Under the pieces are notes generated by a model. That model was not told where the DNA came from. It did no database searches and was given only the letters and a program-made list of their open reading frames with translations. Positions 10,071-31,707 of a stretch of 64,000 nucleotides of DNA are shown here, one piece after another. Position 1 is the stretch's first letter, and the number at the start of each line of letters is the position of its first letter. The stretch is taken from NCBI GenBank assembly GCA_964610875.1, contig CAZSWP010000003.1, forward strand, positions 80,113 to 144,112, in the 5' to 3' direction. The stretch comes from an uncultured archaeon. Its GTDB lineage: Archaea > Asgardarchaeota > Thorarchaeia > Thorarchaeales > Thorarchaeaceae. The position numbers were made by a program, and so were the translations under genes.

Positions 10071-10363
10071 ATAGGATTGAAGACTTATCGCATTCCTTTT
10101 CACCTGTTCACAAAGCATATAGTTTAGTGAATGTTGAAGTAAATGGAAATGAAATCTTATTTTGGATAATAAAGTGTAATAGATATTATTTGAAAAAATA
10201 AAGTTCTTATAGTCCTTAATTGATGATTTTAAAGCTCTTGTTTCGTTTCATACTGTTTCAACGTGCTATCTCACTCTTATCTGGATATATGTGATTCACA
10301 TACTCACACTTATTTGTGAAATAAAGCTATATTTTTGTGAATAGTGAACGGTGGGCGAATAGA

Positions 10364-13671: not shown

Positions 13672-13766
13672 TCAAGCTTTACTTGGGAGATGAATCGCTT
13701 TCGAAAGAAACACACGCTTTAACCTTTCCATCGCGGACGATATTGTATTACACAACATGATATTGA

Positions 13767-14315
13767 GAACATGTGTTCCATATTTCGAGGAACCAGAATG
13801 GTACATCTATTATACCTCTATGATTGTGTTAATTCTAGAAAGAGCAACGCTAGAAGAGTATCTTTTACAAAAGAGCTCTATGGTTTTACATATTCTTGGA
13901 AAACGAAGTCAGGACCTAAAGAGAGAAAGAAGAGTGGCTTGATTGATGTGTGCGTTGGTGCAACAGCTGTTAGTGACTCAGCTATTTTAGTTCCGGAGGA
14001 ATATAGAGGTCTCTTTGATCAACTATTCAATGCATATCGTGACATTCTGAACATCCGCATTTTTGAGATAAACCAAGAATTGGAATTATAAGAACACGTG
14101 TTCCAACAACCTGCAAACCCCTTCATTTCCTGTCGAAAATAAAATCTTCTAAAAAACTATAAAGAACAAAAGTATAAATATAGGTTTGCCGAACTACATT
14201 TATCTCCATTTTACTAACATACATACTTACACACTTTTCTACTCCATTCTACTAATTTCCAGTGGAAGCAGAGGGGTATATTGGCTGGGTCATACACACT
14301 GGAACACGTGCTCCA
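13767..14315. repeat. Three copies of the near-palindrome GAACAYGTGYTCCA (13767, 14092, 14302)
   Basis: gaacatgtgttcca, gaacacgtgttcca and gaacacgtgctcca read directly from the sequence. Confidence 0.7.
13798..14091 (+). CDS. Small hypothetical protein next to the putative origin
   Basis: GAGG SD before ATG 13798; MVHLLYLYD...RRVSFTKELYG...SGLID...SAILVP, alpha/beta pattern. Confidence 0.65.
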   Translation: MVHLLYLYDCVNSRKSNARRVSFTKELYGFTYSWKTKSGPKERKKSGLIDVCVGATAVSDSAILVPEEYRGLFDQLFNAYRDILNIRIFEINQELEL

Positions 14316-14404
14316 AAACTTGCATGATGGTTCAAACCACAACACTGATACTATGTTTAGTTTTCCGATGATTCGCCCAAAGAGGAAAATCGGAGGATCT
14401 TGCG
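14092..14404. other. Putative chromosomal replication origin (oriC)
   Basis: Inverted ORBs 14117-14137 (minus: TTCGACAGGAAATGAAGGGGT) and 14257-14277 (plus: TTCCAGTGGAAGCAGAGGGGT) flank a 119-bp AT-rich spacer. Confidence 0.75.
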
Positions 14405-16294: not shown

Positions 16295-16295
16295 A

Positions 16296-16925
16296 ATGTC
16301 TAGTAATACAGGTAATACGAGCAATTTGGTCAGCGTTGCAATATCAGGTGTTGGTGGCCAAGGAGTCCTAACTCTTGCAGAGGTACTAGCCAAAGCCGCA
16401 TTGAGAAACTCCCACAATGTTCGTGTTGGTGAGATTCATGGAATGGCACAACGTGGTGGGCATGTAATATGCACTGTCAGAATAGGTCCTGGTGCAAAAG
16501 GACCGATTGTAGATAATGGCACAGCTGACATAATGGTTGGATTTGAACCTGCTGAAACTCTAAGAGAAATCCAGCTTGTGAAAAAGGATGGACATGTTTT
16601 GATGAATACCCATATCATGTATCCAGTAGCTGTTTCCATGGGGAAAGCTGAGTATCCAGAACACAAAGAGATCCTAGAAAATATGAAGAAATTCAGCAAG
16701 AACATAATTGAATTTGATGCCTTTCAACTAGCAAAGGAATCAGGTGATACTCGGGCAATGAACATGGTCATGCTCGGAGCTATAATTGGTACTGGTATCA
16801 CACCAATAAGTGAAGAAGCCGCAATTGAATCAGTCCGGACATCATTTCCTGGTAGGTTCGAAGAAATTAACATCAAAGCTTTCAAGCTTGGTCTAGAGAA
16901 AGTGAAACGTTTATTAAAATCATAG
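16296..16925 (+). CDS. iorB: Indolepyruvate:ferredoxin oxidoreductase beta subunit
   Basis: GVGGQGVL, EIHGMAQRGGHV, NMVMLGA; ATG 16296. Confidence 0.93.
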   Translation: MSSNTGNTSNLVSVAISGVGGQGVLTLAEVLAKAALRNSHNVRVGEIHGMAQRGGHVICTVRIGPGAKGPIVDNGTADIMVGFEPAETLREIQLVKKDGHVLMNTHIMYPVAVSMGKAEYPEHKEILENMKKFSKNIIEFDAFQLAKESGDTRAMNMVMLGAIIGTGITPISEEAAIESVRTSFPGRFEEINIKAFKLGLEKVKRLLKS

Positions 16926-16949
16926 TTATTACTTGTAATACAAATATTA

Positions 16950-19319
16950 CTAGTAGATTTCTCTTGCTATCGCCACTGCTGCTTGACCAATAGACACGCC
17001 TCCATCTCCCGGAGGAACATCTCTATGGATAAGAGGAGTAAGACCATGATCCTTAATTTTAGAAACAATAGCTCTTGTAATAATTCGGTTCAATGCGACT
17101 CCTCCTGAAAATCCAATGTGTCTGACAGCGTATTGTTTGGCATTCTGTACAGCAATGTCTACAAGAGAAGACCCCAAATACCATTGAGCCGCATACGCAA
17201 TATCTTGAACTGGTTCTCCTCCCCTACGCAAATCGATTATGTATTGAATTGCATCGCGGACATCAAGCTGCATTTGCCCATTGTTTTCAGAGAAAATACT
17301 AGGTATCCTAAGTGTTGATTCTCTTGCTATTGCCTCAAGTTTCATTGGGCACTCACCATCATATGTATTAGCATCACATATTCCAAGAACTAATGCAACA
17401 GTATCAAGAAACCTTCCCGCACTGCTGCTTGTCACTGTATTGATTTTGCGTTTCGTGGCCGTCAATAATAATGAAACTTCTTCTTCATTTGCAATTCTAT
17501 CTTTTGATATTCGTGGATAAGTAACAGCATTCAAAATTCCATCAGCATTCATATCATCAGCCATGAAACCAATGAACGGTCTAATTGCATATTGTGCAGT
17601 AAGATTTCCTCCAGGAAAGTCATAGGGTTTTATACCTCCGATGCGGTCGTACTGTTTTGCATCCCCAAGTAATATCTCTCCACCCCAAGCATTCCCATCA
17701 TCTCCATAACCGAAGCCATCAGCTGTAATACAAATAATACGAGTATTAAGTGGTAGTTTGTACTCCACAAGATGCGAAGCTAAATGTGCATGATGATGTT
17801 GTACTCTGTGAAGATTTGCATCATAAGTTTCTGAGAGATGTTCAGCAAGACTAGTTGTGAGAAACTCGGGATGCAAATCACAAGCCACAGCATCCACAGT
17901 GTTAAGACCAATTAAAGACATCAGATGATTTAGAGCGTCTTTAAGAAACTCCACATTTTCAATTCTATCAGTATTTCCAATATACTGCGTTGGATAGACT
18001 CTTCCAGATCTTACAAGAGACCCCGTTACCTTTTCTTCTGGACCCACTGCCAATACGCTATGATGCTTTGGTACATCTTTGAGTGTTAATGGCTCAGGGA
18101 CATAACCCCTTGCTCTCCTAATGAGCAAAGTTGAATCGTTTATCACTTTGATAACTGAGTCATCTTCTCTTTGATGGATTCTTCTATCATGCACCAGAAA
18201 ATAATCGGCTATAGAGTGTAATTCAGAAACCAAGGCATCGGAATCAATATACATAGGGATACCTGTAGGATTCGCACTGGTCATTATCAGAGCAGGTTCA
18301 TCCAAGTAATCAAAGAGAAGTAGATGAACAGGTGCGTATGGAAGCATAACTCCAACTGTATCGAGTCCTGGTGCAATGAGATCAACTGTCTCCTGAGGTA
18401 TTAGTTGTAATACAGATATTTTCTTCACTGATTTTTTCCTAACCAACACAATTGGTCTGCGCCAGGATTTGATTAGATCTAACTCCATCTCTGTGATATC
18501 GAAATTATTTAGAAGAGTATCTTCATCACGGACCATTATTGCAAAAGGTCTTGCAGACCTTTTCTTACGTTCACGAAGTTCTTCTATGGGTCTATAATCT
18601 CGTGTCCCCGTCACAAGATGAGTACCAGAAATCCCTTGGACTGCCAGAATCTTATTACATGCAATCAGTTCTGAAGCCTTTTTTATCGAGTTTTTCAATT
18701 CCAGAGAGTTTCCACTTTTATCAACTAGTTTGTATTGAGGTCCACAATCTTCGCACGCTGTTGTTTGAGCATGATATCTCCTGTCGAGGGGATCTGTATA
18801 ACCAATATTACAAGTATTACATAACGGAAAATCAACCATTGTAGTATTCGGACGATCATATGGCAGAGTTGTTATGGTTGAATATCTTGGACCACATGCT
18901 GCACATGAAGTGAAAGGATAACGATACCATCTTGATGCTTCATCAAATAGGTCCCTTTTGCAATCACCACATATAGCTATATCTGGTGGTATGATTGGAT
19001 CAACATCCTCTGTTCTTGTTTCTGAAGATTTTTCAATCAGGAACTCATCAAAATCATTCTGAAACTTTTCCCATTGAACAGAAATTTCGTCCACTCTTGA
19101 GATTGAGGGAGGTTCAGATTTTACCATCTGTATCAGTTTTTCTAGTTGCTTCTTTTCACCCTCAGCCACTATTCGTACACCTGCATCACCTAGGTTTAAG
19201 ACATATCCTGTTAAAGAAAGATTTCTAGCTACACGGTATACAAAAGGCCGGAAGCCTACACCTTGTACAATTCCATTCACTCTAATAATGGCACGTTGCT
19301 TCAAAGATCCAAACTCCAT
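16950..19319 (-). CDS. hypF: Hydrogenase maturation carbamoyltransferase
   Basis: Acylphosphatase GIVQGVGFRPF, Zn fingers (CxxC), YrdC-like region, DLHP, QHHHAH, DGFGYGDDG..WGGE, PPGDGGVSIGQ. Confidence 0.96.
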   Translation of the reverse strand: MEFGSLKQRAIIRVNGIVQGVGFRPFVYRVARNLSLTGYVLNLGDAGVRIVAEGEKKQLEKLIQMVKSEPPSISRVDEISVQWEKFQNDFDEFLIEKSSETRTEDVDPIIPPDIAICGDCKRDLFDEASRWYRYPFTSCAACGPRYSTITTLPYDRPNTTMVDFPLCNTCNIGYTDPLDRRYHAQTTACEDCGPQYKLVDKSGNSLELKNSIKKASELIACNKILAVQGISGTHLVTGTRDYRPIEELRERKKRSARPFAIMVRDEDTLLNNFDITEMELDLIKSWRRPIVLVRKKSVKKISVLQLIPQETVDLIAPGLDTVGVMLPYAPVHLLLFDYLDEPALIMTSANPTGIPMYIDSDALVSELHSIADYFLVHDRRIHQREDDSVIKVINDSTLLIRRARGYVPEPLTLKDVPKHHSVLAVGPEEKVTGSLVRSGRVYPTQYIGNTDRIENVEFLKDALNHLMSLIGLNTVDAVACDLHPEFLTTSLAEHLSETYDANLHRVQHHHAHLASHLVEYKLPLNTRIICITADGFGYGDDGNAWGGEILLGDAKQYDRIGGIKPYDFPGGNLTAQYAIRPFIGFMADDMNADGILNAVTYPRISKDRIANEEEVSLLLTATKRKINTVTSSSAGRFLDTVALVLGICDANTYDGECPMKLEAIARESTLRIPSIFSENNGQMQLDVRDAIQYIIDLRRGGEPVQDIAYAAQWYLGSSLVDIAVQNAKQYAVRHIGFSGGVALNRIITRAIVSKIKDHGLTPLIHRDVPPGDGGVSIGQAAVAIAREIY

Positions 19320-19464
19320 TCTTCTTTGAAAAATAATTATGATATTAAGTCAATGAAGTGGCAAAGGAATCTACTTTTGTCATTACATTACAAGTATAAC
19401 ATGTATTACAATCAATTTTGTAGGTCCTCTTAAGTATGAATACAGAATATACTATTGATTTTAG

Positions 19465-19878
19465 ATGCCAGCTCCGTCAAAAACATCACATCGTATCATT
19501 GGGGAACCCAAGACCACGCCTTCTATATTAGCCAATATCCCAGATTGTCTACATTCAGTTCTTATTGAATCTGCAAATGCTGCTAGTCGTAAGAAAAAGT
19601 CTATTCTCATATCAAGTAATAGTCTTGCGAATAGATTCATTCTAGATAGATGGGGGATAAGACCTTCACAACGCAGACGCTTCAAGAATCTATTCGCATC
19701 TGTTAGAAAACAATGTCGTAATATGTTTCAACATTATCTGGCACGAGGTCGAATAGAATGGACTTCGGGATCCGATAATCACAAGTTTGGTGTCTATAAA
19801 TTTGATGAGATACGAGGTAACTTGATTCTAGGATTTGTTGAAGTTACTCCTGAAAAGGACTGGACATTGAAATTCTAA
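19465..19878 (+). CDS. Basic hypothetical protein, possibly DNA-binding
   Basis: 137-aa Arg/Lys-rich ORF bracketed by GTAWTAC arrays on both sides. Confidence 0.7.
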   Translation: MPAPSKTSHRIIGEPKTTPSILANIPDCLHSVLIESANAASRKKKSILISSNSLANRFILDRWGIRPSQRRRFKNLFASVRKQCRNMFQHYLARGRIEWTSGSDNHKFGVYKFDEIRGNLILGFVEVTPEKDWTLKF

Positions 19879-19879
19879 C

Positions 19880-19909
19880 AATATATGTAATACAGGTATT
19901 ACATATATT
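19880..19909. promoter_or_regulatory. Perfect 14-bp inverted repeat AATATATGTAATAC-ag-GTATTACATATATT (strongest GTAWTAC site)
   Basis: Arms 19880-19893 and 19896-19909 are exact reverse complements. Confidence 0.8.
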
Positions 19910-20027
19910 CAAACTATATCCTTATTTGTAAAATATTGAGTGTATACAAACATGTATCCGTGTAGAAACTTTTGTAAAATGTTTCTAAAACACCTCTCAA
20001 AACAAATTAAAATAAATTTAGAGGCTT

Positions 20028-20603
20028 ATGAGGACTCTTAAGATGAGTGATGAAAAAACAAATGAAATAAACGTGGAAGAAGCGAAAAGACTAGCAAAAG
20101 GGACTAAACAAGTAATGAGAGAACCCATTCTTCGTATACTATTGGAAAGGTCTCTCATTACCGAAGCACAACTAGAAACCTTACTAATTGATCTTGTAGT
20201 TGAAGATGCAATAAGACAACAAATACCGTATGAAGAGAAAGCAAGCTTACGATCTAAGAAATCGAGTAGAACGAAAGGGGTATCCAGAGGTGCATTCAAC
20301 AGGACACTAAAACAAGCAAGGCGTAATGTTACAAGATGTCTTTACACAATGTTACTCTTAGCATATTTAGGACTATTTGATTTTGCAGTATTTCGTCCAT
20401 TTGAAGAAGTAGCAGCAAAAATTGGGAACTACAGAAAAATCAGGGATGTATTATCTGGCAGGTCAAATCTAACTGATGAAGAATTGGAAAGCTATCATGC
20501 TTCAGAGAGAGCAATTACAGAAGCACTTGAAAATATGGCTACGTCTTTGATATTGAAGTCAGAAATTTCACGTAGACGTGGTACCACAGAAAATGAAGAA
20601 TAG
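20028..20603 (+). CDS. Conserved archaeal HTH-like protein
   Basis: SLITEAQLETLL...KGVSRGAFNRTLKQARRNV..CLYTMLLLAYLGL, sigma70-region-4-like HTH pattern. Confidence 0.7.
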   Translation: MRTLKMSDEKTNEINVEEAKRLAKGTKQVMREPILRILLERSLITEAQLETLLIDLVVEDAIRQQIPYEEKASLRSKKSSRTKGVSRGAFNRTLKQARRNVTRCLYTMLLLAYLGLFDFAVFRPFEEVAAKIGNYRKIRDVLSGRSNLTDEELESYHASERAITEALENMATSLILKSEISRRRGTTENEE

Positions 20604-21017
20604 AGTATTATTTGTATTACATTTTATGTAATCTATGTCAAGCGATGAAAATAGGTAAAAATAAAATTGGCACGAATGTGTCGATTCACACGTAGACCCA
20701 ATGCGTTGAGGAATCCACAGGAACTCGTATCATTAGCATTACCATCATCTGAGGTATTTGCGAGGAGATAGAGATGGTAACAACCAATCTCCGAGTTAGC
20801 CTGCAGATCATTTTCCACAAGCATTGAGTGTTCATCGTAAATACGACACACTCACTATATAGTAAGTTCAAACTTCTACATAGTTCTAATCCTAGAACGA
20901 GGTGTTACTCAAATAATCTCAATAACATTAAAAGATAATATCGATTCTCTATACTATTATAAGTAATAATCGTATTACAATAGCCATCTACAAAATGCGC
21001 AATCTACTTTATATAAA

Positions 21018-22274
21018 ATGCATTACAAAATGGTGATCACTTTGAGAGATAATGACCCCCTGGATAAACTAAGACGATCTGCAAAAAGATACATTGAGAA
21101 AAAAAGTGAGAAGGAACTATTGGAACTAATTGTAAATTGTATTGGTGAGCGCCGTTCAAATGATTTACTTGATATTCTTGCGTCTGAAGAATCAAAAAGG
21201 GGCTGGCAAAAAGTTGTGTTTGATATAAAACACATACTTGGAATGAGATATTCTATACCTCTAGGATTCACAAAAAATAAACTTGAAATTGAAGAGCTGA
21301 AGTTTAGAGAAGTTATCTTCGACACACTAGGATGCCGAGGTCTTGAAGCAATTCCTTTGAGTATAGATTTGATACTTGAGAAACTAAATACATGTGAGAA
21401 TATGACTGAGGCACAGAATACTCTAGCAGTGCTATGTGAGGAAGGGTTGAATGAATTAATCAGCAAGGGGGCACTACTTTTCTTTGACTCATCAGAATTT
21501 GCTGCTACTATTAAATCAGAATTACTGAGTCAAATTGAAAGTCGCCAGGAACAAAATATCTCACAACTTTATTTATCACGAGATGATCAATACATAGATA
21601 TCACCGCTCTTTGGCACACAGAATTAGGCAGAAGAGCACTTCTCAATATTGGAATAAAAGGAACTAAAATCACGGAAACTCAAATGGACCTTGTAATATC
21701 TGTATTACAAGTATCACGAGAAACGAAAAAATATCTGATGGAATCCTTATCTGAGAACAAACAAGCGATTGAAACCAAATCTCTCAACCCATTGTATAAC
21801 GAACTACTACAGTACATGATTGAATGGAACATTTCTGGTCTTCGCTCTCTTGGAAGTAGATTTGCAATACCATTATTCAGACATATCACAATCTTTTCTT
21901 TTGAAAAATACTCAACTACTGAAGATAGTAAAACATACAATGAATATCTCGAAAGTCTGAAAAATCATGTACTTGTTAGAACATCTGAATCACTAGAAAT
22001 ACTTGAATATCTCTCTCAGAAATCAGACCCAAGAATTGCAAGCCCTGCAATCACATATCTTGGAAACTTTTACACAGCAACAGTATCATCAATATTGGTA
22101 GATCTCGTCTGTTCAAGTAAGAAAAAAGTAATTCAACATACCGCTGTTACAGCATTGAAAAACGTCCAAACAAGATGCCCAGAAACTAAGAATATAGTTG
22201 AGCTTGCTCTTAAAGCAGATTGCCAGAATAGAGGAAGACTATTGAAGTTTTATAGAGATTTGTGGCAAAAGTGA
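21018..22274 (+). CDS. Alpha-helical hypothetical protein with C-terminal HEAT-like repeats
   Basis: 418-aa ORF; SDPRIASPAITYLGNF and KKVIQHTAVTALKNV are HEAT-like segments. Confidence 0.7.
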   Translation: MHYKMVITLRDNDPLDKLRRSAKRYIEKKSEKELLELIVNCIGERRSNDLLDILASEESKRGWQKVVFDIKHILGMRYSIPLGFTKNKLEIEELKFREVIFDTLGCRGLEAIPLSIDLILEKLNTCENMTEAQNTLAVLCEEGLNELISKGALLFFDSSEFAATIKSELLSQIESRQEQNISQLYLSRDDQYIDITALWHTELGRRALLNIGIKGTKITETQMDLVISVLQVSRETKKYLMESLSENKQAIETKSLNPLYNELLQYMIEWNISGLRSLGSRFAIPLFRHITIFSFEKYSTTEDSKTYNEYLESLKNHVLVRTSESLEILEYLSQKSDPRIASPAITYLGNFYTATVSSILVDLVCSSKKKVIQHTAVTALKNVQTRCPETKNIVELALKADCQNRGRLLKFYRDLWQK

Positions 22275-22356
22275 CCGTATTACAAGTATTAAAAACAATA
22301 CAAATCTAACTGCCATCTCGACAGACATAAAACCCACTTGTATCTAGCTCATTATC

Positions 22357-23751
22357 ATGATGGTAAGAAATGAGATTGTGGAGGAACTAGACTCATTTTT
22401 CAATCCGAAAAGAGTTGCACTAGTAGGAGCCTCTGCTGACTATAGAAAACTGGGTAATTCAATATTGATGAATTTACTTGCATCAGAAATTGAAATTTAT
22501 CCTATTACTATCAGTCGTGACCGTGTTTTAGGCGTCAATGCATATCCAAATCTCCATGATTTACCACAGCCTGTTGATCTTGTTATCATTGCTGTGGCAG
22601 CAAAATATTGTACTGGACTCATGTCAGAAGTCCGAAAAGCTGGAGCAAGAAATGCTATAGTAATATCTGGTGGATTTAGTGAAACTGGGGAGGAGGGGAA
22701 GAAACTTGAGAAACAACTTGTAGATGCTGCTAAGGCTGAGGGTGTCAGGATAATTGGTCCTAATTGTGTAGGAGTTTCAAATAGTAGATTGTTCAATGGC
22801 ACATTTACTATGATGCCCGAGAGAGGAAATATTGCTCTTCTCTCTCAAAGTGGTGCATTAGGTGGAATGACCATATACACTACAAGAACAAAACGAATTG
22901 GGATGAGCAAATTTGTTAGCCTTGGGAATGCAGCTGATGTCAGTTTCACTGAAGTCCTTGAGTATTTCAGATATGACCAGAGAACGAACGTGATTGCAGT
23001 CTATGTTGAAGGTGTAGATGAGGGTCGTGATTTTTATGAAGCATTAAAGAGAGCCTCGAGCGAAAAACCTGTTGTAGTTCTCAAGGGGGGAAGAAGTGAG
23101 GCTGGGGCAAAAGCAACCATGAGTCATACAGGGTCTCTTGCAGGTTCTATCAAAGTCTTTGATGGAATGATACGCCAAGCAGGTTGCGTGACTGCTCCTA
23201 CATTTGATTCATTCTTTGAAGTTTGTAAATTATTTGATTATCAACCTTTACCGAAAGGTCGTAATATTGGTATTATTAGTAATACAGGGGGAGCTGGTGT
23301 TCTCGCTACTGATAAAGCGACCGACATGAACCTTGAAGTACCAGTTTTAAATCCTGAAACACGAAATGAATTAAGACAAGCCCTCTCTCCTATGGCATCA
23401 ATTGAAAACCCAATCGATGTTGTTGCTAGTGGTGGAAGAAGGGAATACCGTATTGCTACAGAGTTATTGTTGAAAGATTCCAATGTTGATATGTTGTTAG
23501 TCATATGTGGCGTTCCAACCTTTGCAGGGATGACCCAAACTGAACATGCTGCTGGTACACTTGAAGGGGTACGGATGGCTGAAACTAGTAAACCAGTAGT
23601 GGGTGTTTGGCTCGCTGGCAATGTTGGAAAACCTGGAAAAGATCTTCTGGAGATGAATCGCATTCCTTGTTATGATGATCCAGCATTAGGTATTCTCTGC
23701 ATGACTAAGATGGCTGAATATGCTGAAATGCACAGTCATATGAACTTGTAG
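22357..23751 (+). CDS. acdA: Acetate/acyl-CoA ligase (ADP-forming) alpha subunit
   Basis: VALVGAS, ISGGFSETG, IIGPNCVG, SQSGALG, SHTGSLAG phospho-His motif, NPIDV. Confidence 0.92.
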   Translation: MMVRNEIVEELDSFFNPKRVALVGASADYRKLGNSILMNLLASEIEIYPITISRDRVLGVNAYPNLHDLPQPVDLVIIAVAAKYCTGLMSEVRKAGARNAIVISGGFSETGEEGKKLEKQLVDAAKAEGVRIIGPNCVGVSNSRLFNGTFTMMPERGNIALLSQSGALGGMTIYTTRTKRIGMSKFVSLGNAADVSFTEVLEYFRYDQRTNVIAVYVEGVDEGRDFYEALKRASSEKPVVVLKGGRSEAGAKATMSHTGSLAGSIKVFDGMIRQAGCVTAPTFDSFFEVCKLFDYQPLPKGRNIGIISNTGGAGVLATDKATDMNLEVPVLNPETRNELRQALSPMASIENPIDVVASGGRREYRIATELLLKDSNVDMLLVICGVPTFAGMTQTEHAAGTLEGVRMAETSKPVVGVWLAGNVGKPGKDLLEMNRIPCYDDPALGILCMTKMAEYAEMHSHMNL

Positions 23752-23776
23752 TAATTGTATTATTTGTAATACACCA

Positions 23777-24082
23777 TTATTCAAGATACTTGTTTGCAAG
23801 TTCCGGAAACTCGTCTGTAACTGCATCCCTAAGCTTGCGCTCGACCCACATACTTAGATTGATTGCACGCTCATTTCTTACAGACTGAAGACAAGACCTA
23901 AGTTCAGTTGTAACACTGAATGACATTATTGGACTTCGTCTCTCACTGTTAGGAACAGCTGAGGGAGTTTCAGTCCTTCTAACCCGGGTCTGGCTGGTAG
24001 ATTCAGTTGTTGATGTTGTTTCGTCTTTGTCTTTTTCATCTCTACCTTGTTCATCTTTCCGGTACTTTCCTAAGAGACTCAT
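23777..24082 (-). CDS. Ribbon-helix-helix protein with long disordered N-terminal tail (ParG/omega/SegB-like architecture)
   Basis: Low-complexity S/T/E/R N-terminal half, then IMSFSVTTELRSCLQSVRNERAINLSMWVERKLRDAV (beta-helix-helix). Its ATG overlaps the upstream stop (TAATG). Confidence 0.7.
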   Translation of the reverse strand: MSLLGKYRKDEQGRDEKDKDETTSTTESTSQTRVRRTETPSAVPNSERRSPIMSFSVTTELRSCLQSVRNERAINLSMWVERKLRDAVTDEFPELANKYLE

Positions 24083-25056
24083 TATCTGACCTCCCTAAGT
24101 AACGTCGCATATGCATCGGAAACTAGTGATGCTATCTCTTCATTAACCTCAGGATTTCCATTGCTCCTGAAGTTTTCAGCAGCTACTTGTTGACAACCAC
24201 GAGCTAACATTCTGATATCGCGAGGATTGCCTTTTGCAGCTGAATTGATTATATCAATCGCCTTCTCATGGAATGGATAAAGATCAAAATCATTTAGATC
24301 GAATGTGTCAATCTCACCACGTGCATATGCCAACCGTCGTCCTATGAACTCCTTTGCCTTCATAGCATCAAATGCAGGCACATCAAGGGGTTCAGTTCTA
24401 TCAGCAATCTGTGGAAGATATGATAGCATAGCATTCCAATACATTGCAGTACCACTCATCACAAGAGTCACAATTGGTTCATCTAATGACTGTCCATGGC
24501 CTGCAATCATCTCTTCTGTAGGTAAATCTGCCAAGTAGCGTAATTTATGAAATGCTGCTTCCTGATTATCCGCAACATCTTCTATGAATAGTGCAGTACG
24601 ACTTTGTTCTTCCATATATCTCCGAAGACATTCTTGAGCCACTGCTTCGATAATCTGACTAGACTCCCAAGACCTCCGATATTTTACTCGTAATGAATCG
24701 GCAATAGCTGCCGACATTTGCTTCTCGTATAACCCAGTCATTCCAACATAACCAGTGACGAATTTGTTACCACGTCGATCTGCCAGTGTTGGCAGGTCTC
24801 TCAGGGCAAGTAACATCAATGTACTTTTTCCAGAACCAACAGGTCCACGAAGGAATACATGTCGCTCGTTTGTTATTATCAAATCTACAATAGAGTCAAG
24901 AAAGTCTGCATGCTCTATATAGAGCCGACTATCTGGCATCTTGAAACCACGAAATGGTGAGAATTTGGCCCTGATTTTATCCTCCCAAGCTTTTAGGGTT
25001 TCTTTTCGTGTATTGAAGTGACGTATTAGAGCACTCTCATGAATTGCAATTGTCAT
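24082..25056 (-). CDS. ExeA/GspA-like (AAA_22, Orc1/Cdc6-related) AAA+ ATPase
   Basis: VFLRGPVGSGKST Walker A, ALFIED variant Walker B, LVMSGT sensor-1, PQIADR Arg finger, PF.EKAIDII..AAKGNPRDIRML lid; start ATG 25056 or GTG 25074. Confidence 0.85.
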   Translation of the reverse strand: MTIAIHESALIRHFNTRKETLKAWEDKIRAKFSPFRGFKMPDSRLYIEHADFLDSIVDLIITNERHVFLRGPVGSGKSTLMLLALRDLPTLADRRGNKFVTGYVGMTGLYEKQMSAAIADSLRVKYRRSWESSQIIEAVAQECLRRYMEEQSRTALFIEDVADNQEAAFHKLRYLADLPTEEMIAGHGQSLDEPIVTLVMSGTAMYWNAMLSYLPQIADRTEPLDVPAFDAMKAKEFIGRRLAYARGEIDTFDLNDFDLYPFHEKAIDIINSAAKGNPRDIRMLARGCQQVAAENFRSNGNPEVNEEIASLVSDAYATLLREVR

Positions 25057-25289
25057 GGCTCGGCCTCGTATCACATGTAGTTATTGTAATACAATTTCAA
25101 TACACTGCCCATTCATAAAGGTTCCGTGCGTTCAAAATACTTTATTCAAACAGCGCCAATAAAAAGCAATGTTTCAATAACATGGTATTAACTGTAATAC
25201 ATTCCAATCACGAAAATCCGAACATGGCACAACCTTTTTCAACCAATTGCTTTCGTGATTCAGTAGTTGACGCAAGGAGTCACAAGAAA

Positions 25290-25568
25290 ATGGACGTTGA
25301 CAGGACTCAGCGAATTCTGACATCATTAATGATCATCAGTTTTCTAGTATTCGGCCTTTTAGCTGGAATCATTTTGATCACTGATGCACCATTGGACGCA
25401 TCCACTACCTCACTGCCTTTTGCTTTTCTATTCATATCAGGAATGACACTGATAATTACCGGACAAATAAATGAGCGTCCAAAACGGGTAGATAGATACC
25501 TACGACAATGGTTGGTCATCTGTGTTTTTGTTGCCGTTCTTAGTGCTCTTGCATTTACACTTGCATAG
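25290..25568 (+). CDS. Small 3-TM membrane protein
   Basis: AGGAG SD before ATG 25290; three hydrophobic helices. Confidence 0.7.
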   Translation: MDVDRTQRILTSLMIISFLVFGLLAGIILITDAPLDASTTSLPFAFLFISGMTLIITGQINERPKRVDRYLRQWLVICVFVAVLSALAFTLA

Positions 25569-25660
25569 AAACACCTATCGCAATAGTTTTAGGAATGCGA
25601 AAATGCAGTGGATTTATTGAGTAATGACTCAATATACTGAGCCATGAAAAAGTGATTATT

Positions 25661-26290
25661 ATGAGCAAGGTTCTGCCAGGAACAAAGACTACTCGAAGCG
25701 AACTACTTCGAATAAAGACAAGAATGCGTCTTGCAGAACGTGGTCATGATTTATTAAAAGAAAAACGTGACTCCCTTGTTTTAGAGTTTTTTAATGCTAT
25801 TGCTGAAATAAAAGAAGCACGTGACAAGATGGAAAAAGCTCTCGATGAAGCTTTTTCAAGTCTTACACAAGCAAAGATGATTATGGGTCCTGCTCGAGTA
25901 ATTGAATTCGCTCATGCGAGTAAAGTACGAACTGACCTATCGATTACCACTCGTTCAATGATGGGTGTCCGTGTTCCGGTAATCTCTGTTGAACAACAAG
26001 TACCTGAACTTCCTTATTCTCTCCCTGACTCAAGTGCAAGGCTTGATACAATGAGTCTGAAATTTAGAGAGGCTCTAAAGGCAATAATACACCTTGCCGA
26101 AATTGAATCTGCAATCAAGCGCCTCGCTCTTGAAATAGAAAGGACAAAACGCAGAGTTTCTGCTCTCGAAACTGTGGTAATACCACGACTAGATGCAACC
26201 CAGAGATTTGTGAAACTGGCACTCGAAGAACGCGAGCGAGAAGACTTCATTCGTCTGAAGATCATCCGTGATCGGATGGAAAACGAATAA
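25661..26290 (+). CDS. atpD: A/V-type ATP synthase subunit D (stand-alone)
   Basis: TRSELLRIK..MRLAERGHDLLKEKRD, EIERTKRRVSALE, LEEREREDFIRLK. Confidence 0.93.
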   Translation: MSKVLPGTKTTRSELLRIKTRMRLAERGHDLLKEKRDSLVLEFFNAIAEIKEARDKMEKALDEAFSSLTQAKMIMGPARVIEFAHASKVRTDLSITTRSMMGVRVPVISVEQQVPELPYSLPDSSARLDTMSLKFREALKAIIHLAEIESAIKRLALEIERTKRRVSALETVVIPRLDATQRFVKLALEEREREDFIRLKIIRDRMENE

Positions 26291-26294
26291 TACA

Positions 26295-26672
26295 CTAGGT
26301 TTTTCTAAGTTTTAAAATAGCTGCAGCCAAATCTCCACCCGTTTCCTTCAAAGTTTCAATTGCAGTTTCAATATCCACACCTGTCTGGCCTGCCACTAAT
26401 GCTGCATCTTCAACTGGAATCTCAATCTCAGATTCTGCTACTTCTGTGACTTCACCACCAGATGTGAGTCCACGTTCTATCTTATTTCCTGATACTTGAT
26501 ATGATTCATTCCCTGCTTGCTTAATGACCATCACTTGCGCATTAGCAATCTGCCATTCTTTATCTTCAAAACGAATAATGACCTCTTTAACTCCTTTTAG
26601 CTCATTTTGTTCAATACCCATTTTTTTCATCATTCGTGCCATCTGTTTAGGTGATAGTCCTCGAAATCCCAT
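26295..26672 (-). CDS. nac: Nascent polypeptide-associated complex protein
   Basis: PKQMARMMKKMGI, VKEVII, C-terminal UBA-like EDAALVAGQTGV...GDLAAAILKL. Confidence 0.93.
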   Translation of the reverse strand: MGFRGLSPKQMARMMKKMGIEQNELKGVKEVIIRFEDKEWQIANAQVMVIKQAGNESYQVSGNKIERGLTSGGEVTEVAESEIEIPVEDAALVAGQTGVDIETAIETLKETGGDLAAAILKLRKT

Positions 26673-26765
26673 TATTCATTCCTCAGAAATCTGTAATTTT
26701 GATATCAATTACTTTCCTCTTTAGTGAAATAATTATGGCCACTGATAAAACGGTTGTGCTCTAGT

Positions 26766-27593
26766 TCAAATAGATTCCAGCTCTATGTCAAAAACAAAAT
26801 GGATAATATTGGGCGAATAGTATTTTATTTTACGTATTTCAATACTAGCAGTGAAATTATATTTCCCAGAAATAGTATTAATTGTATTACAAACATTATG
26901 GATTGAATCTGGATGTGATGCAAGATGCATATGTATGGCACCTCCTCTCTTGGAAAGTGTTTCAAGGGCGTAGGGCAGAAACTCTGTAGTGCTATGCAAG
27001 TAACCCATCACAATCCTATCTGCTATACCAATAGGATGTACCTTCCTACAGTCTCCCAAAATTGCTTCCATTCTATCAGTTACATTATTGAGTTGAATGT
27101 TTTCCTGTAAATAAGAGTGTGCTAAAGGACTGATTTCAATAGCTATCACTTTTGCTCCACTCCTACTAGCTATATGCAACCCGAATTGTCCTACACATGC
27201 AAACATATCCACAACGGTTTCTGAGGGATCGACCAAGTCCGGCAAACGAATTCGCTCTGCACGATTACCTCCAGAAAAAGTAATCTTCAATGGGTCAAGT
27301 TTGAACTTTACTCCACTTTCAATGTGTGTGGTGACAGTGTTAGAATCTCCTGCAAACAACTTGTATTGTGGTTCTCTGATCTCTCCTTTTGTGCCTCCAA
27401 CCTTAATAGCAATAGACTTTGCCTTTTTCTCATACTGCAGCGTAAGCTCTGCAATCATTTTGGATAGAACAGCAACCTCATTTTTTATCTGTAGTAGGAC
27501 GACATGTCCTACAACGTGGTAACCTTGTGGTAAGCTAGACTCTGATGTAACATATTCTCTGAGTTCTGTTTTGAGGAAATTCCTATATTTCAT
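26766..27593 (-). CDS. Trm5/TYW2 (Taw2-like) SAM-dependent tRNA modification enzyme
   Basis: HIESGVKFKLDP.KITFSGGN..ER, VVDMFACVGQF, DRIVMGY. Confidence 0.85.
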   Translation of the reverse strand: MKYRNFLKTELREYVTSESSLPQGYHVVGHVVLLQIKNEVAVLSKMIAELTLQYEKKAKSIAIKVGGTKGEIREPQYKLFAGDSNTVTTHIESGVKFKLDPLKITFSGGNRAERIRLPDLVDPSETVVDMFACVGQFGLHIASRSGAKVIAIEISPLAHSYLQENIQLNNVTDRMEAILGDCRKVHPIGIADRIVMGYLHSTTEFLPYALETLSKRGGAIHMHLASHPDSIHNVCNTINTISGKYNFTASIEIRKIKYYSPNIIHFVFDIELESI

Positions 27594-27615
27594 TGTAATT
27601 CATGTATTACAATTT

Positions 27616-28890
27616 TTAGCAGTATATACCTGCAGGAGCATCTTGTCCGCCTTTTCCACGAACTTGCATCTTTATAATGGCTTTCTGGAAATCATCATGT
27701 GTTACGCAGGTTCGTCCATCACGGATTGCAAACATACCTGCTTCCGTACACATTGCTTTGATATCCGCTCCAGTCTTGTTCTGAGTGAGAAGAACAATTT
27801 GATCAATATCTAATTCCTTGTCAATATTCATACCACGTATGTGAATCTTGATTATCTCTTTCCTGCTTACTTGATCTGGCATTGGAAAGTCAATTATTCT
27901 ATCAAAACGACCCGGTCTCAAAAGGGCTGGATCAAGGATATCAGGTCGGTTCGTTGCTCCAATAATGGCAACTTGACCTCTTGTTTCGAACCCATCAAGC
28001 TCGCTAAGAAGTTGCATTAATGTACGTTGTACTTCTCTATCTCCAGATGTAGCAATATCAAGTCTGTGTGAACCAACAGCATCAAGTTCGTCAATAAACA
28101 CAATGGCAGGAGATTTCTCTTTTGCAAGCATGAATATCTCTCTTACCAACCTGGCACCTTCACCGATGAATTTCTGGACAAGCTCGGATCCAATGACTCT
28201 TATGAAAGTGGCATTGGTTTCATGTGCGACGGCTCTAGCGCTGAGTGTTTTACCTGTTCCAGGAAGTCCAGTAAGCAATACTCCTTTTGGAGGTTCTATG
28301 CCCACTTCCTTAAACAGGTCGGGCTTTATTAATGGCAATTCAACAGTTTCCCTAATCTCTCGTAATTGATCTTCCAAGCCTCCAATATCGCTATAGGATA
28401 CTTCTGGAGCTTCTTCAATCTCCATAGCTCTAATCATTGGGTCACGAGATGGTGGGAGTTCTTGAGTCACAGCAAAAGACCTCTGATTGAGTGCAACACG
28501 CATACCTGGCTGAATCCGATTTCTGGGAATAGATGATGCCACATGGACTACAAAATTTGGTCCAGTTGAACTCTTGACAATGGCGCGTCCATCCTCAAGC
28601 ATCTCTACAATAGTTGCTGTTATCAAAGGAGAAGAACGTAGTTTCTCGAGTTCCGTTCGTAAAGTCTGTGTTTCCTTTTCCAATCTACTACGCTCTGCAT
28701 GAAGAATTTGTTTTTCGGTTTCCAATGCTCGAAGTCGACGTTCAAGATGTCTTGTATAACTCTGTGAATAAGTTGAGTCATCAACGTTACCATCTTTCTT
28801 TGCATCAGTAGTTCCAGGCAAAAAGGTGCACCTCAGCTCCTCATCCTCTGCTAAGGTTTTAAGCATATCCGTATTGGTGTTTTTCATCAT
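27616..28890 (-). CDS. pan: Proteasome-activating nucleotidase
   Basis: Coiled coil and OB domain, [16 protein letters not shown]-type Walker [23 protein letters not shown]-terminal HbYX (IYC). True start may be TTG 28821. Confidence 0.95.
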
Positions 28891-28946
28891 TCAGGTCAAG
28901 CTTTATCTATGCTCTATCTTGAGAGTAATTAGAGAGGGAAGAACCC

Positions 28947-29528
28947 GTGCGCAACTGTGAACTATGTGGTCGAAGCATGAAAGGCCGCGGTAGAAACGTT
29001 GAGATAGAAGGTGCCATGATGAATGTCTGCCCTCAATGTGCTACCAAGTTTGGAAGACAGTCTTCTGACCATGACTCCAAAACCACCTCATCAACAAGAC
29101 GAACAAAACCATCATGGGTAGGACGACCCGATGTGCAGACAACTAGGCCCTCCACAACATCCTCTCCAGTCGTACACCGGAAAAAACCCCAAAAATCACG
29201 TCCAAGAGGTGGTCCTTTGATAGACGACCTTGAACTAGTTGATAATTATGCTTCAATCATTCGCAATGCAAGACAGAAAAAGGGGATGAATCAGGAGGAG
29301 CTAGCTCAGAAAATAGGTGAACGTATTACTACTCTTCAGTCCATTGAGGCAGGGCGATTGAAGCCTACACGGAAGGCAATTCGTGGACTGGAACGTGAGT
29401 TAGACGTCTCTCTTCTTGAAGCGGTTGGTACACCTCCACTGAAAGTGAGTAAGGGCAGAAGCTCTGGTGGACCTACTTTAGGTGATGTTGTAAAGGTAAA
29501 AAGGAAGAAATCACAAAAACAAGACTAA
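28947..29528 (+). CDS. mbf1: Archaeal multiprotein bridging factor aMBF1
   Basis: N-terminal CELCG...VCPQC Zn ribbon, Cro-like HTH, TLGD motif; divergent from pan. Confidence 0.9.
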   Translation: MRNCELCGRSMKGRGRNVEIEGAMMNVCPQCATKFGRQSSDHDSKTTSSTRRTKPSWVGRPDVQTTRPSTTSSPVVHRKKPQKSRPRGGPLIDDLELVDNYASIIRNARQKKGMNQEELAQKIGERITTLQSIEAGRLKPTRKAIRGLERELDVSLLEAVGTPPLKVSKGRSSGGPTLGDVVKVKRKKSQKQD

Positions 29529-29691
29529 GCTCTTATTCCGCGCAGCTTAACTAACCACAGAACAGCTCTTAAATAGTATATGAACATATATTATTATAGG
29601 TGCAAATTTCTCCCAAGTTTGGAACTTCTAATGGTCCAACAGATACAGTAGACTATCCGACTTATGATATTACCAAGGTGATTACATCAAA

Positions 29692-30222
29692 ATGGCACAT
29701 CCGACTTTCAACAGTGACTTATTCAGATTAGTAGTAGAAGAAATAGCAGGAAAAGAAGGAGTAGATGTTGCTACAGTCTTGGTAAATGCAGATGAAACAA
29801 CCGATGAAGAGATTGCTACTAAAACTGATTTGAAATTGAATGTAGTTCGTCGTATTCTTTACAAATTACATGATAATCATCTTGCCTCATATCGTCGAAT
29901 ACGTGATACAAACACTGGATGGTTTCTTTATTATTGGAAGATTGACCCAAAGAAAGCACAAACCTTAGTGAACAGGAAAAAAAGAATGGTTCTCAACCTT
30001 CTTCAACAAAGACTGGAACATGAGAGTAACAATGATTTGTATGCTTGTGTAAATCGGGATTCCTCACCTGTACCCTTCGAAGAAGCTATGAACCTTTCAT
30101 TCAGATGTCCTACATGTAATCAACCTCTTGAGTATGTTGATAACAAACAATCCGTTGATTTCCTTAAGAAGCGCGTTGAGGAATTAAAGGCTGACCTTGA
30201 GGCTACATCATCAACTACCTAG
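29692..30222 (+). CDS. tfe: Transcription factor E (alpha)
   Basis: TDEEIA...LNVVRRILYKL...TGWFLYYW, FEEAM..SFRCPTC. Confidence 0.93.
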   Translation: MAHPTFNSDLFRLVVEEIAGKEGVDVATVLVNADETTDEEIATKTDLKLNVVRRILYKLHDNHLASYRRIRDTNTGWFLYYWKIDPKKAQTLVNRKKRMVLNLLQQRLEHESNNDLYACVNRDSSPVPFEEAMNLSFRCPTCNQPLEYVDNKQSVDFLKKRVEELKADLEATSSTT

Positions 30223-30273
30223 GAATCATATGAAGGAACTCTAAGCATTATACTGAGAGGAGATTATAATTAA

Positions 30274-31029
30274 TTGAAAGAAATTGTACTAATGCCCAAA
30301 ATTTACGGTCAATACCGTAATAGACTATCCAATCAGATAGAGTCAGATATTCACGAAATGGTGCGAGAATTAGATGCCAGAATAATGCGCTTCTCTCTTG
30401 ACAATAGAGGTCATCCAAAACTCATTGTTGAAGGAAAGGACGAAGAATTTGTAATAAATGTATTACGAACTGAATTTGGTGAAGCACTAACATTTCATCA
30501 AGCACTTCCTAACACATCATATCATGGAAATTTAATTGATGTTGGAAAGGTAGGCTATGGTCTTTATATTGACATTGGAATTGTCGAACCTGAATTTTCA
30601 GATGCTTTAATCCCATTGCATAGACTTAGAGAACAACTCGATATGGAAGGCATGTCTACTCGAAAAATCGCAAAGAATCTAAATCTCGTTGATTATCTTC
30701 CAGTAGAAGTAACCATCATAGAAACAGACTCATCTGACTCAAAAATAGAGGCTGAATTTAGTGATGTTCTGCTACAGAGGCTTGAGAACTGGATCAATGA
30801 TGACCATGAACGACTTCTTGTGTTTGGCGCCAATCGAGAGATGATTGAAACTGCTTTAGGCATAACACATCATCTTGAAGACATTTATGAATTCGAACAA
30901 CTAGGGCATCTTGAGTTTGCACTGAGATGTAAAAGAAGTACACGTGCGTCAGGAATTCTTGCTGCTATAGGCCCAAAACTAAAGGGAGTTCCAATGCATC
31001 TCTTCATACCATCAGAAATAGAGAGATGA
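30274..31029 (+). CDS. DUF2110-family protein
   Basis: GKDEEFVINVLRTEFG, GKVGYGLYIDIG, ASGILAAIGP; usual neighbour of tfe. Confidence 0.8.
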   Translation: MKEIVLMPKIYGQYRNRLSNQIESDIHEMVRELDARIMRFSLDNRGHPKLIVEGKDEEFVINVLRTEFGEALTFHQALPNTSYHGNLIDVGKVGYGLYIDIGIVEPEFSDALIPLHRLREQLDMEGMSTRKIAKNLNLVDYLPVEVTIIETDSSDSKIEAEFSDVLLQRLENWINDDHERLLVFGANREMIETALGITHHLEDIYEFEQLGHLEFALRCKRSTRASGILAAIGPKLKGVPMHLFIPSEIER

Positions 31030-31707
31030 ATGATGCCACGAATTGATGTTTGGCTTGTGGAACAGGGACTATTCAAATCAAGGCAGGCTGCAAAGAGAGC
31101 TATAAGGAATGGATACGTAAAAGTCAATGGGGTCATAGCAAAGCCGTCTACCAAAATTTCTGGAAACGAATCGGTTGAGGTTTCCGATGATGCTAAAGAT
31201 GTGCCACTTGGTTATACTAAACTAAGGCAGATAAATCATCATCTCCATAACAGACTTATCCAATCTGGAATGAGAGCACTAGATATTGGTAGTTCTGTAG
31301 GAGGTTTTCTCAAGTATCTACTAGAAAAAGATGTCATTGTAACAGGAATTGAAATTTCAGATGAATTCATACAAGAGTTAGAACATCTAGTAGAAGAATA
31401 TGACACACTCTCATTGATTATAGATGATGCATTTCTCCTCGAGCCCTCAGAACTGTTTGAAAAAGAAGACTTTGATTTACTTCTCATTGATGTAACAACA
31501 GATCCGGATGGCACAATCTCACTAGCAGAGAAATACTCCCTATTTGTGAAAAAAGGAGGGTACATGCTGCTGGCAATCAAATCACAAGAAGATGACCTCG
31601 AAAGAAAAACGATTGATCATGTACTCCAAGAATTAGGGTTCTCTGAATTACAAGTAATACAACTTGATGACTCAAAGAAGGAAATACACATAGTAGCTCT
31701 TCGCTAG
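31030..31707 (+). CDS. S4-domain TlyA-like rRNA methyltransferase
   Basis: RIDVWLVEQGLFKSRQAAKRAI S4 motif; ALDIGSSVGGF SAM motif. Confidence 0.85.
   Translation: MMPRIDVWLVEQGLFKSRQAAKRAIRNGYVKVNGVIAKPSTKISGNESVEVSDDAKDVPLGYTKLRQINHHLHNRLIQSGMRALDIGSSVGGFLKYLLEKDVIVTGIEISDEFIQELEHLVEEYDTLSLIIDDAFLLEPSELFEKEDFDLLLIDVTTDPDGTISLAEKYSLFVKKGGYMLLAIKSQEDDLERKTIDHVLQELGFSELQVIQLDDSKKEIHIVALR

Follow-up and report, generated by a model that had tools for sequence, protein, structure and literature searches.

How Asgard archaea organize and segregate their chromosomes is unknown, and a review says only that homologues of ParA and ParB exist which these archaea 'may use' (PMC7617429). Work on the archaeal SegA-SegB pair concerns ParA-type systems (PMC12139799), and SegB is not reported from Asgard archaea in either source (PMC12139799, PMC7617429). 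Here we describe a locus of an uncultured archaeon of the Thorarchaeaceae (assembly GCA_964610875.1), contained in a stretch of 64,000 nucleotides (contig CAZSWP010000003.1, positions 80,113 to 144,112; hereafter the window), in which an operon for an AAA+ ATPase and a small protein with a predicted ribbon-helix-helix (RHH) domain lies in a field of GTAWTAC heptads linked to a putative replication origin (oriC). The AAA+/RHH operon in its origin-linked repeat field is a confirmed observation, and full-text searches of the searchable literature returned no published description of the ATPase-RHH pair or of the repeat field. By analogy with ParABS and type Ib partition cassettes, the locus may be an origin-proximal, centromere-like system that organizes or segregates the chromosome with an AAA+ nucleoside triphosphatase (NTPase), a reading to which we give an even chance.

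Like the type Ib cassettes (ParF-ParG of TP228 and delta-omega of pSM19035), the locus is a two-gene operon in which the NTPase gene comes first and the gene for a small binding protein second. The small protein again combines a flexible N-terminal tail with a C-terminal RHH domain, here as a predicted fold, and arrays of short repeats phased at less than one helical turn flank the operon, where they probably serve autoregulation, an arrangement that here recurs in other lineages. The locus departs from these cassettes in its NTPase, which is a classical-Walker AAA+ protein of Orc1/Cdc6/TnsC-like fold and not a deviant-Walker ParA, and in being chromosomal and origin-linked, with sites dispersed over a field of ~17 kb that lies partly in genes in place of one compact centromere. 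SegA-SegB of the Sulfolobales is an archaeal chromosomal pairing of an NTPase with an RHH-type site-specific binder that has a disordered N-terminal region, which the predicted small protein here may resemble; SegA, however, is a ParA-type Walker ATPase whereas the partner here is AAA+, and the segS sites are few and lie beside their operon. With ParABS the locus shares an origin-proximal operon and a cluster of specific sites of which the rest of the genome has almost none, and its slot, from the Orc1-h217 origin region to the gene h191, is the one taken by ParA-ParB in one Asgard family (f13). In contrast to ParABS, the two proteins have no ParB_N or helix-turn-helix (HTH) domain, no CTPase domain and neither a deviant Walker A ParA domain nor a ParA fold; they show no sequence similarity to that system, and the sites are 7-bp palindromes in 9-bp-phased arrays as against the 16-bp parS.

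An AAA+ ATPase and its small partner

The operon consists of two minus-strand genes, of which the first (24082..25056) encodes the ATPase of 324 aa, with an ATG start (MTIAIHES) set from the open reading frame (ORF) and the lengths of homologues, and the second (23777..24082) encodes the tail-bearing RHH protein of 101 aa, characterized by an alignment of 40 homologues and a predicted model. Stop and start codons overlap in TAATG, a GGGAGGT stretch resembling a Shine-Dalgarno sequence lies upstream of the second ATG, and nearly all full-length ATPase homologues are 323-326 aa long with the same start. An earlier note on this DNA had proposed a translationally coupled AAA+/RHH operon and had listed a Walker A motif, a swapped acidic pair and a GNPR lid motif; both genes and their overlap were confirmed on the minus strand, and all of the motifs are present (GPVGSGKST; LFIEDVAD, with ED in place of DE; KGNPRDIR). 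Across 26 homologues the invariant or nearly invariant residues include G74, G76, K77, E159/D160, T203, R220 and R279, a pattern that fits a Walker A motif, an acidic pair, a sensor 1, an arginine finger (with R220 as the candidate) and a sensor 2 (GNPR, R279).

Sequence profiles all score the ATPase below threshold, with AAA_22 at 24.2 against 27 bits, AAA_16 at 24.9 against 32.6, TIGR03015 at 23.6 against 324.5 and the Orc1/Cdc6 profile TIGR02928 at 13.3 against a cut-off of 181.3. The same searches gave no ParA-family match, and the Walker A motif GPVGSGKST is not the deviant KGGxxK[ST]. No winged-helix or other DNA-reading domain and no Cdc6_C match were found in the protein, which ends with the lid. 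The predicted model, with a predicted local distance difference test (pLDDT) score of 90, comprises an AAA+ base and lid over the whole 324 aa and lies nearest to archaeal Orc1/Cdc6 (Z 18.4-19.0 to 1w5s, 1fnn, 2v1u and 2qby over ~255-265 residues), the top match being 1w5s_B (Z 19.0, 263 residues aligned), at an identity of only 11-15%. Other matches include Drosophila Cdc6, eukaryotic Cdc6/ORC1 and the TnsC/MuB/TniB group (Z 17.2-18.0; TnsC, 7plh, at 18.0 and MuB, 8xvb, at 17.6), and Clp-type AAA+ proteins come next at Z ~15.8.

The resemblance to Orc1/Cdc6 thus takes in an AAA+ base and lid of the initiator type, a GNPR sensor 2 that recalls GDAR and a position beside oriC, but the ATPase lacks the C-terminal winged helix and scores below the family level, and DNA would presumably be read by the separate RHH protein. 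Orc1/Cdc6, TnsC and MuB, the top structural relatives, are all AAA+ proteins that form assemblies on double-stranded DNA when ATP is present, and the partner-controlled, ATP-dependent DNA assembly of TnsC and MuB is mechanistically close to ParA-ParB logic. In the case of MuB the controlling partner is MuA (PMC3894238).

The ATPase resembles the TnsC/MuB/TniB proteins in fold and size, and those proteins work on DNA under the control of a partner; here, however, there is no transposase partner and no mobile-element context, and the locus is a fixed housekeeping one. A domesticated or active mobile-element or defence module, in which the ATPase would be a target selector of the TnsC/TniB/MuB kind or would accompany an RHH antitoxin, could invoke this likeness (Z 18.0 to TnsC, 17.6 to MuB) and the frequency of RHH domains among antitoxins. 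We can hardly credit it, as no transposase, integrase or toxin gene was seen near the operon, and the ATPase gene, 75-87% identical and essentially single-copy (two matches in three fragmented genomes), occurs in 77 of 85 genomes of the family, at a fixed position by oriC there and across Asgard families; mobile-element, toxin-antitoxin and defence modules were accordingly rejected for want of such partner genes at a fixed housekeeping locus. From its sequence distribution, this core, near-single-copy ATPase fits a housekeeping role.

The ATPase had also been called ExeA-like, a label that JGI annotation likewise gives to its homologues. Weak sequence similarity to ExeA/GspA (COG3267, AAA_22) does exist, together with an N-terminal ...PF... 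motif ahead of the P-loop, and that part of the label stands; the predicted fold, in contrast, is nearest Orc1/Cdc6, TnsC and MuB, the matches are sub-threshold, the host is an archaeon and the protein has no membrane or peptidoglycan-binding region. No secretion genes were seen near the operon, and a secretion ATPase was rejected on these grounds.

The small protein has three parts in the alignment of 40 homologues: an invariant N-terminal MSLLGKYRK, a variable, acidic, Ser/Thr-rich linker (residues ~14-42) and a conserved C-terminal region of ~50 residues, with the RHH domain predicted at residues ~48-98. The model gives a low-confidence N-terminal helix (4-13), a linker with pLDDT below 50 (17-37), an extended segment (50-57) and confident helices (59-72, 76-91 and 93-99; pLDDT ~90). 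In an exhaustive structural search with this model, RHH proteins made up most of the top 50 matches, headed by omega (1irq and 2bnw, Z 3.6) and including the PutA RHH domain, SegB (Z 3.4), the ParB of pCXC100 (Z 3.1), ParD, TacA, NikR and Arc. The SegB structures 7duv and 7dv2 (Z 3.3-3.4 over 54 residues) stand level with many other RHH proteins. The disordered N-tail and C-terminal RHH pattern described previously agree with the predicted model and with these RHH-dominated matches (Z at most 3.6), and structural search and sequence pattern together match the small protein to the RHH class. A Pfam match to Vma22 in the acidic linker is spurious. Prediction of a complex between two copies of the small protein and the ATPase, with alignments, returned a score of 0.01, which counts neither for nor against binding.

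On a Bathyarchaeota-labelled contig (L036, 486-2472) we observed a variant operon, in which a gene for a 66-aa tail-less RHH protein is accompanied by those for an ATPase homologue (41% identity) and for a KaiC/RecA-like ATPase with (V)LSKYRK/LSKYKK present three times at its N-terminus. The recurrence suggests that the MSLLGKYRK-type peptide may be a portable docking motif for this AAA+ family.

A heptad field at the putative origin

The window contains 35 GTAWTAC heptads where 5.4 +/- 2.4 are expected, a number reached in none of 100 shuffles. The whole 3.75-Mb genome has 366, and its three densest 5-kb bins (10, 7 and 6 heptads) all fall at 15-30 kb of the window, every other bin holding at most three. 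Phased heptad pairs, TAWTANNNGTAWTAC, are more concentrated still, as 25 of the 26 in the genome are on this contig and 20 lie within 13-32 kb of the window. The field itself (13596..31660, ~17 kb) is made up of 27 exact heptads in 25 arrays at a median spacing of ~690 bp, and alignment of 234 sites from ten genomes resolves the repeat unit into a strong central heptad with weaker xTAWTAx heptads at -9 and +9 bp. Twelve of the 25 arrays are intergenic in a field whose DNA is 12% intergenic, two of the arrays being in convergent 3'/3' spacers, and the other 13 lie inside housekeeping genes.

Exact heptads flank the operon at 23766, 25086 and 25194. The first belongs to a three-unit array, GTAGTAA-nn-GTATTAT-nn-GTAATAC, with a 9-bp period (23748..23772) in the convergent 3'/3' spacer just past the RHH gene; the second, GTAATAC at 25086-25092, is the centre of an array (25077..25103) that lies 30 bp upstream of the ATPase ATG and is likely an operator or promoter-overlapping site; and the third ends a two-unit array, GTATTAA-nn-GTAATAC (25185..25200), in the divergent spacer upstream of the operon. 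The heptads placed earlier at 23748, 25086 and 25185 therefore need restating: 25086 is exact, whereas 23748 and 25185 are degenerate first units of the 9-bp arrays (23748/23757/23766 and 25185/25194). The description of the operon as the centre of a repeat field likewise needs correcting, since in relatives the operon lies towards one field edge.

As a separate observation, GTAWTAC is under-represented outside the field. The window's own genome has 366 against ~712 expected from base composition, and the genome of a relative (G379) has 97 against 308 for a reversed control pattern. This scarcity could be avoidance of off-target sites, with the expectation taken from base composition and carrying no higher-order correction.

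The field extends to one side of an oriC-like element (14118..14276), which marks its left edge and consists of two inverted boxes (TTCCAGTGGAAGCAGAGGGG) resembling origin recognition boxes (ORBs), one on the minus strand (14118-14137) and one on the plus strand (14257-14276), around an AT-rich spacer of ~120 bp. The boxes have the form TTCCAGTGGAA...GGGG, of which the genome contains no more than these two instances, and the pattern is kept at the same spacer in relatives, in the sister family and in other Asgard families. The operon lies ~10 kb from this pair, which is where the earlier note had put it relative to a putative oriC. An Orc1/Cdc6 gene is found on the same contig, ~23 kb left of the ORB pair and ~9 kb left of the start of the window.

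A 13-bp palindrome, GAACAYGTGYTCC, brackets the ORB pair in three copies (13767-13779, 14092-14104 and 14302-14314), and similar GAACA..TGTTC palindromes with an AACAYGTTAAC cluster are seen at Freyr-type loci in the origin spacer between h217 and h106 (L037, 8216-8542). These palindromes look like a second origin-associated element. The AACAYGTTAAC/GTTAACA cluster of the Freyr-type loci was considered as the operon's repeat and rejected, as it sits between h217 and h106 and is an origin element; the operon of these loci has GATATC/GGTATC arrays on its flanks.

Within Thorarchaeota, where the small protein is 52-69% identical, nine other genera retain 17-32 heptads in each 35-40 kb examined, concentrated in the same ~13 kb from oriC to the PAN gene, and phased pairs are likewise confined to the locus (15 of the 15 in the genome of G019, 29 of 29 in G008 and five of six in G379). 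In-gene heptads occupy orthologous codons across ten genera: one at ACD residue 308, written AGT-AAT-ACN for Ser-Asn-Thr, is present in all ten genomes, and further codon-conserved heptads lie at residues ~170, 305 and 532 of HypF and at residue 350 of IOR-a. These positions persist while the G+C content of the region ranges from 0.38 to 0.54, a pattern that requires selection on the DNA itself.

These data bear on the possibility that the heptads form a local transcription regulon, the RHH protein being an autoregulating repressor that also controls its neighbours and the ATPase having an unrelated job. The arrays at 25077-25103 and 25185-25200 do overlap the presumed operon promoter region, 12 of the 25 arrays are packed into 12% of the DNA, and families f7, f31 and f2 have promoter-proximal sites only. 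However, 13 arrays lie in coding sequence at conserved codons and two in promoterless convergent spacers, and a regulon would not be expected to confine the sites of a 3-4 Mb genome to one locus. The neighbouring genes (IOR, HypF, ACD, AtpD, NAC, Trm5, PAN, MBF1 and TFE) are, moreover, functionally unrelated housekeeping genes, and we consider the regulon improbable.

Other features of the region include h217 (10337-10990) and h106 (13771-14091), neither with a Pfam family, HypF (16950-19319) and, on the plus strand, h191 (20028..20603), a probable HTH protein with sub-threshold matches of DUF134/UPF0251 type that we treat as a candidate associated component. Between h191 and ACD lies a gene for a 418-aa protein (21018-22274) with a sub-threshold HEAT-repeat match, seen in Thorarchaeota only, which carries one heptad at a conserved position (residues ~225-230). 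A protein of 1242 aa with a HerA/FtsK/TrwB-like P-loop domain (DUF87, FtsK_SpoIIIE) is encoded at 1230-4958, ~9-13 kb left of oriC, and homologous sequence was detected at the matching region end in two relatives.

The pair and its slot across Asgard archaea

A scan of 400 Asgard genomes identified full-length orthologues of the ATPase in another six families; several large families had none (0/135, 0/31 and 0/22). The pair itself occurs in Heimdall/Gerd-, Freyr- and Odin-labelled lineages and in two more families. In a wider comparison the ATPase was matched by only 18 of 1.84 billion cluster representatives; going by the source names, three of the distant homologue clusters contain Heimdall/Gerd-, Freyr- and Odin-labelled genomes and a fourth contains Bathyarchaeota. 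Every pair-carrying family keeps, at least in part, a shared core of Orc1/Cdc6, h217, h106, the ORB region, the ATPase gene, a small RHH-like gene, h191 and HypF, in that order. Most of this neighbourhood is kept in at least eight Asgard families, with the slot filled by either ATPase-RHH or ParA-ParB (loci L033, L037, L069-L076 and L092). The pair is within ~1-10 kb of ORB boxes in every lineage; outside Thorarchaeota it is usually ~1-10 kb from the Orc1/Cdc6 gene, and the PolD small-subunit gene is also near in some lineages.

Repeats accompany the pair over these distances. In a Heimdall/Gerd-labelled locus (L033), 12 of 14 heptads fall in ~2.1 kb that cover the operon and the DNA immediately downstream, eight of them in a ~950-bp spacer past the RHH gene that includes a run of 9-bp-phased units, and eight of the ten phased pairs of the genome are at this locus (family f20, G117). 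In f7, all three heptads in 40 kb are within ~300 bp upstream of the ATPase gene (G030); and in f31, heptads flank the ATPase gene. The earlier note had expected pairs in relatives to keep a repeat cluster and linkage to the origin, and both were found in nine further genera and five further Asgard families. As operon and repeats travel together across deep lineages whose only common context is the origin neighbourhood, their distribution supports a link between the two.

The pattern of replacement is similarly informative. Family f13 lacks the pair, and its slot reads Orc1, h217, gap, ParA, ParB, h191, the canonical ParA (AAA_31, E 1e-53, KGGVGKTT) overlapping a ParB with ParB_N and HTH_ParB domains and h191 following ~95 bp after the ParB gene (G041). 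Of the contextual arguments for the AAA+/RHH pair doing the work of ParAB, this same-slot replacement is the strongest. ParB_N was not found in the window's own genome, which is 95% complete, and occurs in four of 39 Thorarchaeota genomes. The own genome has two SMC-like genes and elsewhere only generic ParA/MinD-like genes, namely three ATPase genes of the ParA/MinD superfamily (G000:C33:29101-30513, C22:20088-21381 and C55:16474-17997; loci L093-L095) that match no specific MinD or ParA family above cut-off. Downstream of each, on the same strand, lies an ORF (203, 148 and 221 aa) without an NCBIfam match.

The same setting invites a different reading, in which the locus is a replication-control module at oriC, with the ATPase as a winged-helix-less Orc1/Cdc6-like AAA+ protein and the RHH protein as its sequence reader. 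Such a module might be an accessory initiator, a helicase-loading cofactor, a negative regulator or a titration field (compare datA, SeqA and Soj-DnaA logic). It accords with the nearest structures being archaeal Orc1/Cdc6 (Z 19) and eukaryotic Cdc6/ORC1, with the constant proximity of the pair to ORB boxes and, outside Thorarchaeota, usually to Orc1/Cdc6, and with a field that in the window begins exactly at the ORB pair. Yet the heptads lie outside the core of ORBs and DNA unwinding element, spread over many kb in genes and 3'/3' spacers; a tail and RHH domain with phased short repeats is a hallmark of partition adaptors and not of archaeal initiators; the replacement in f13 is ParA-ParB, with no initiator; and the genome already encodes two full Orc1/Cdc6 genes above the family cut-off. 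On this balance we judge a replication module unlikely, though it is the main rival reading. The earlier suggestion that partition logic operates here with an AAA+ motor is partly supported, by the operon anatomy, the operon's own repeats, the origin linkage, the unique field and the ParA-ParB of f13, and it must be weighed against that smaller chance of a role in replication control.

Which protein reads the repeats can be approached through a change of repeat. The RHH strand is PIMSFSV or PVISATV in Thorarchaeota, f2 and f20, and NFNVRMP in f7 and f21, where GATATC/GGTATC arrays at 12-14-bp spacing flank the operon. On the complete 3.58-Mb chromosome of an f21 member, an interval of 11.4 kb around the ATPase gene contains nine of the ten GATATC-N6-8-GATATC pairs, as against none for a control pattern, and this field (G149:C1:1636680-1648120; loci L069/L070) covers Orc1, h217, h106, the ATPase gene, the RHH gene and h191. 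Repeat and RHH strand thus seem to change together, with an imperfect match, while the architecture is conserved.

A possible objection is that the heptads belong to another factor (h191, h106, h217 or a ParA/MinD-type system) and that the operon is a mere syntenic neighbour. The probable DNA-binding protein h191 is encoded close to the pair in all families that have the pair, and close to Orc1/Cdc6, ORB boxes or both in most loci examined; four of the six other families with the pair have the h191 gene after it on the same strand, and in f7 this gene overlaps the small gene or abuts it. The putative recognition helix of h191 is almost invariant, and synteny within Thorarchaeota makes the linkage there non-independent. 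The protein has no PDB sequence match, and its DUF134 matches are sub-threshold only. However, the helix stays nearly constant between GTAWTAC and GATATC lineages while the switch of repeat tracks the RHH strand, no heptad cluster is found near h191 in families that have it without the pair (f13, f12, f6 and f24), and the arrays hug the ATPase-RHH genes in distant lineages. We give another factor little credence; the near-constancy of the h191 helix across repeat types and the absence of heptads near h191 where the pair is missing favour the RHH protein as the likely reader of the heptads.

A possible mechanism and its implications

From these comparisons we infer DNA binding by the RHH protein, contact between its tail and the ATPase, binding of the ATPase to DNA and the cellular function. 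The 101-aa protein would dimerize through its C-terminal RHH domain, and the dimers would bind the palindromic GTAWTAC, one per heptad, cooperatively on GTAATACnnGTATTAC arrays of two to three units with a 9-bp period. The ~25 arrays, ~0.7 kb apart over ~17 kb beside oriC, would form a unique chromosome landmark. The basic N-terminal peptide (MSLLGKYRKDEQ; MSLLGKYRK), held on its disordered linker, would recruit the ATPase, trigger ATP hydrolysis or do both, and the ATP-bound ATPase would oligomerize on DNA in the manner of Orc1/Cdc6, TnsC and MuB. The origin region may in this way be compacted, positioned or segregated, perhaps with SMC loading as part of the process, and the operon would in addition be autoregulated through the arrays on its flanks.

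Several points weigh against a partition role of this kind. The RHH matches have low Z scores (at most 3.6) for the 50-residue domain, such values being expected for a 50-residue monomer, and sequence profiles from Pfam (on 40 family members) and the PDB (chance matches only) give no RHH match; as a Foldseek search of the small-protein model against the PDB likewise returned no match, the RHH assignment rests on structural search and sequence pattern. The whole 35-kb region is syntenic in Thorarchaeota, so linkage of field and operon within that group does not count as independent evidence. In the sister family f2 a single promoter heptad remains and the field is absent; an AT-rich genome of that family (G025) shows this one heptad, lacks phased pairs at the locus and yielded no alternative motif in a k-mer search. 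The link between strand and repeat is not one-to-one, as the f31 strand is MIKISIWIP and yet GTAWTAC lies near its operon. The true partner of the tail could be among the three generic ParA/MinD-like ATPases encoded at other genomic sites. Finally, the adjoining oriC and Orc1/Cdc6 and the Orc1/Cdc6-like fold fit a replication role equally well.

A broader form of the partition reading is that the locus exemplifies a class of segregation machine beside the ParA, actin and tubulin types, in which an Orc1/Cdc6/TnsC-like AAA+ protein is driven by the N-terminal peptide of an RHH protein on a dispersed, origin-proximal field of phased palindromes, and which is ancient in Asgard archaea and interchangeable with ParAB at one slot. 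We advance this tentatively, as a proposal somewhat more likely to fail than to hold.

For Asgard biology the locus offers a concrete candidate, consisting of a pair of small soluble proteins, a defined 7-bp site phased at 9 bp and a genome-unique field by oriC, and it comes with natural comparisons in the ParAB swap of one family and the change of site from GTAWTAC to GATATC in another. If the locus controls initiation instead, it would represent a new type of origin regulator with a separate sequence reader. If the AAA+ protein is indeed the motor or organizer, the repertoire of partition NTPases would grow, and the part of an ORC-like ATPase in handling chromosomes would extend past initiation, among the prokaryotes most closely related to eukaryotes.

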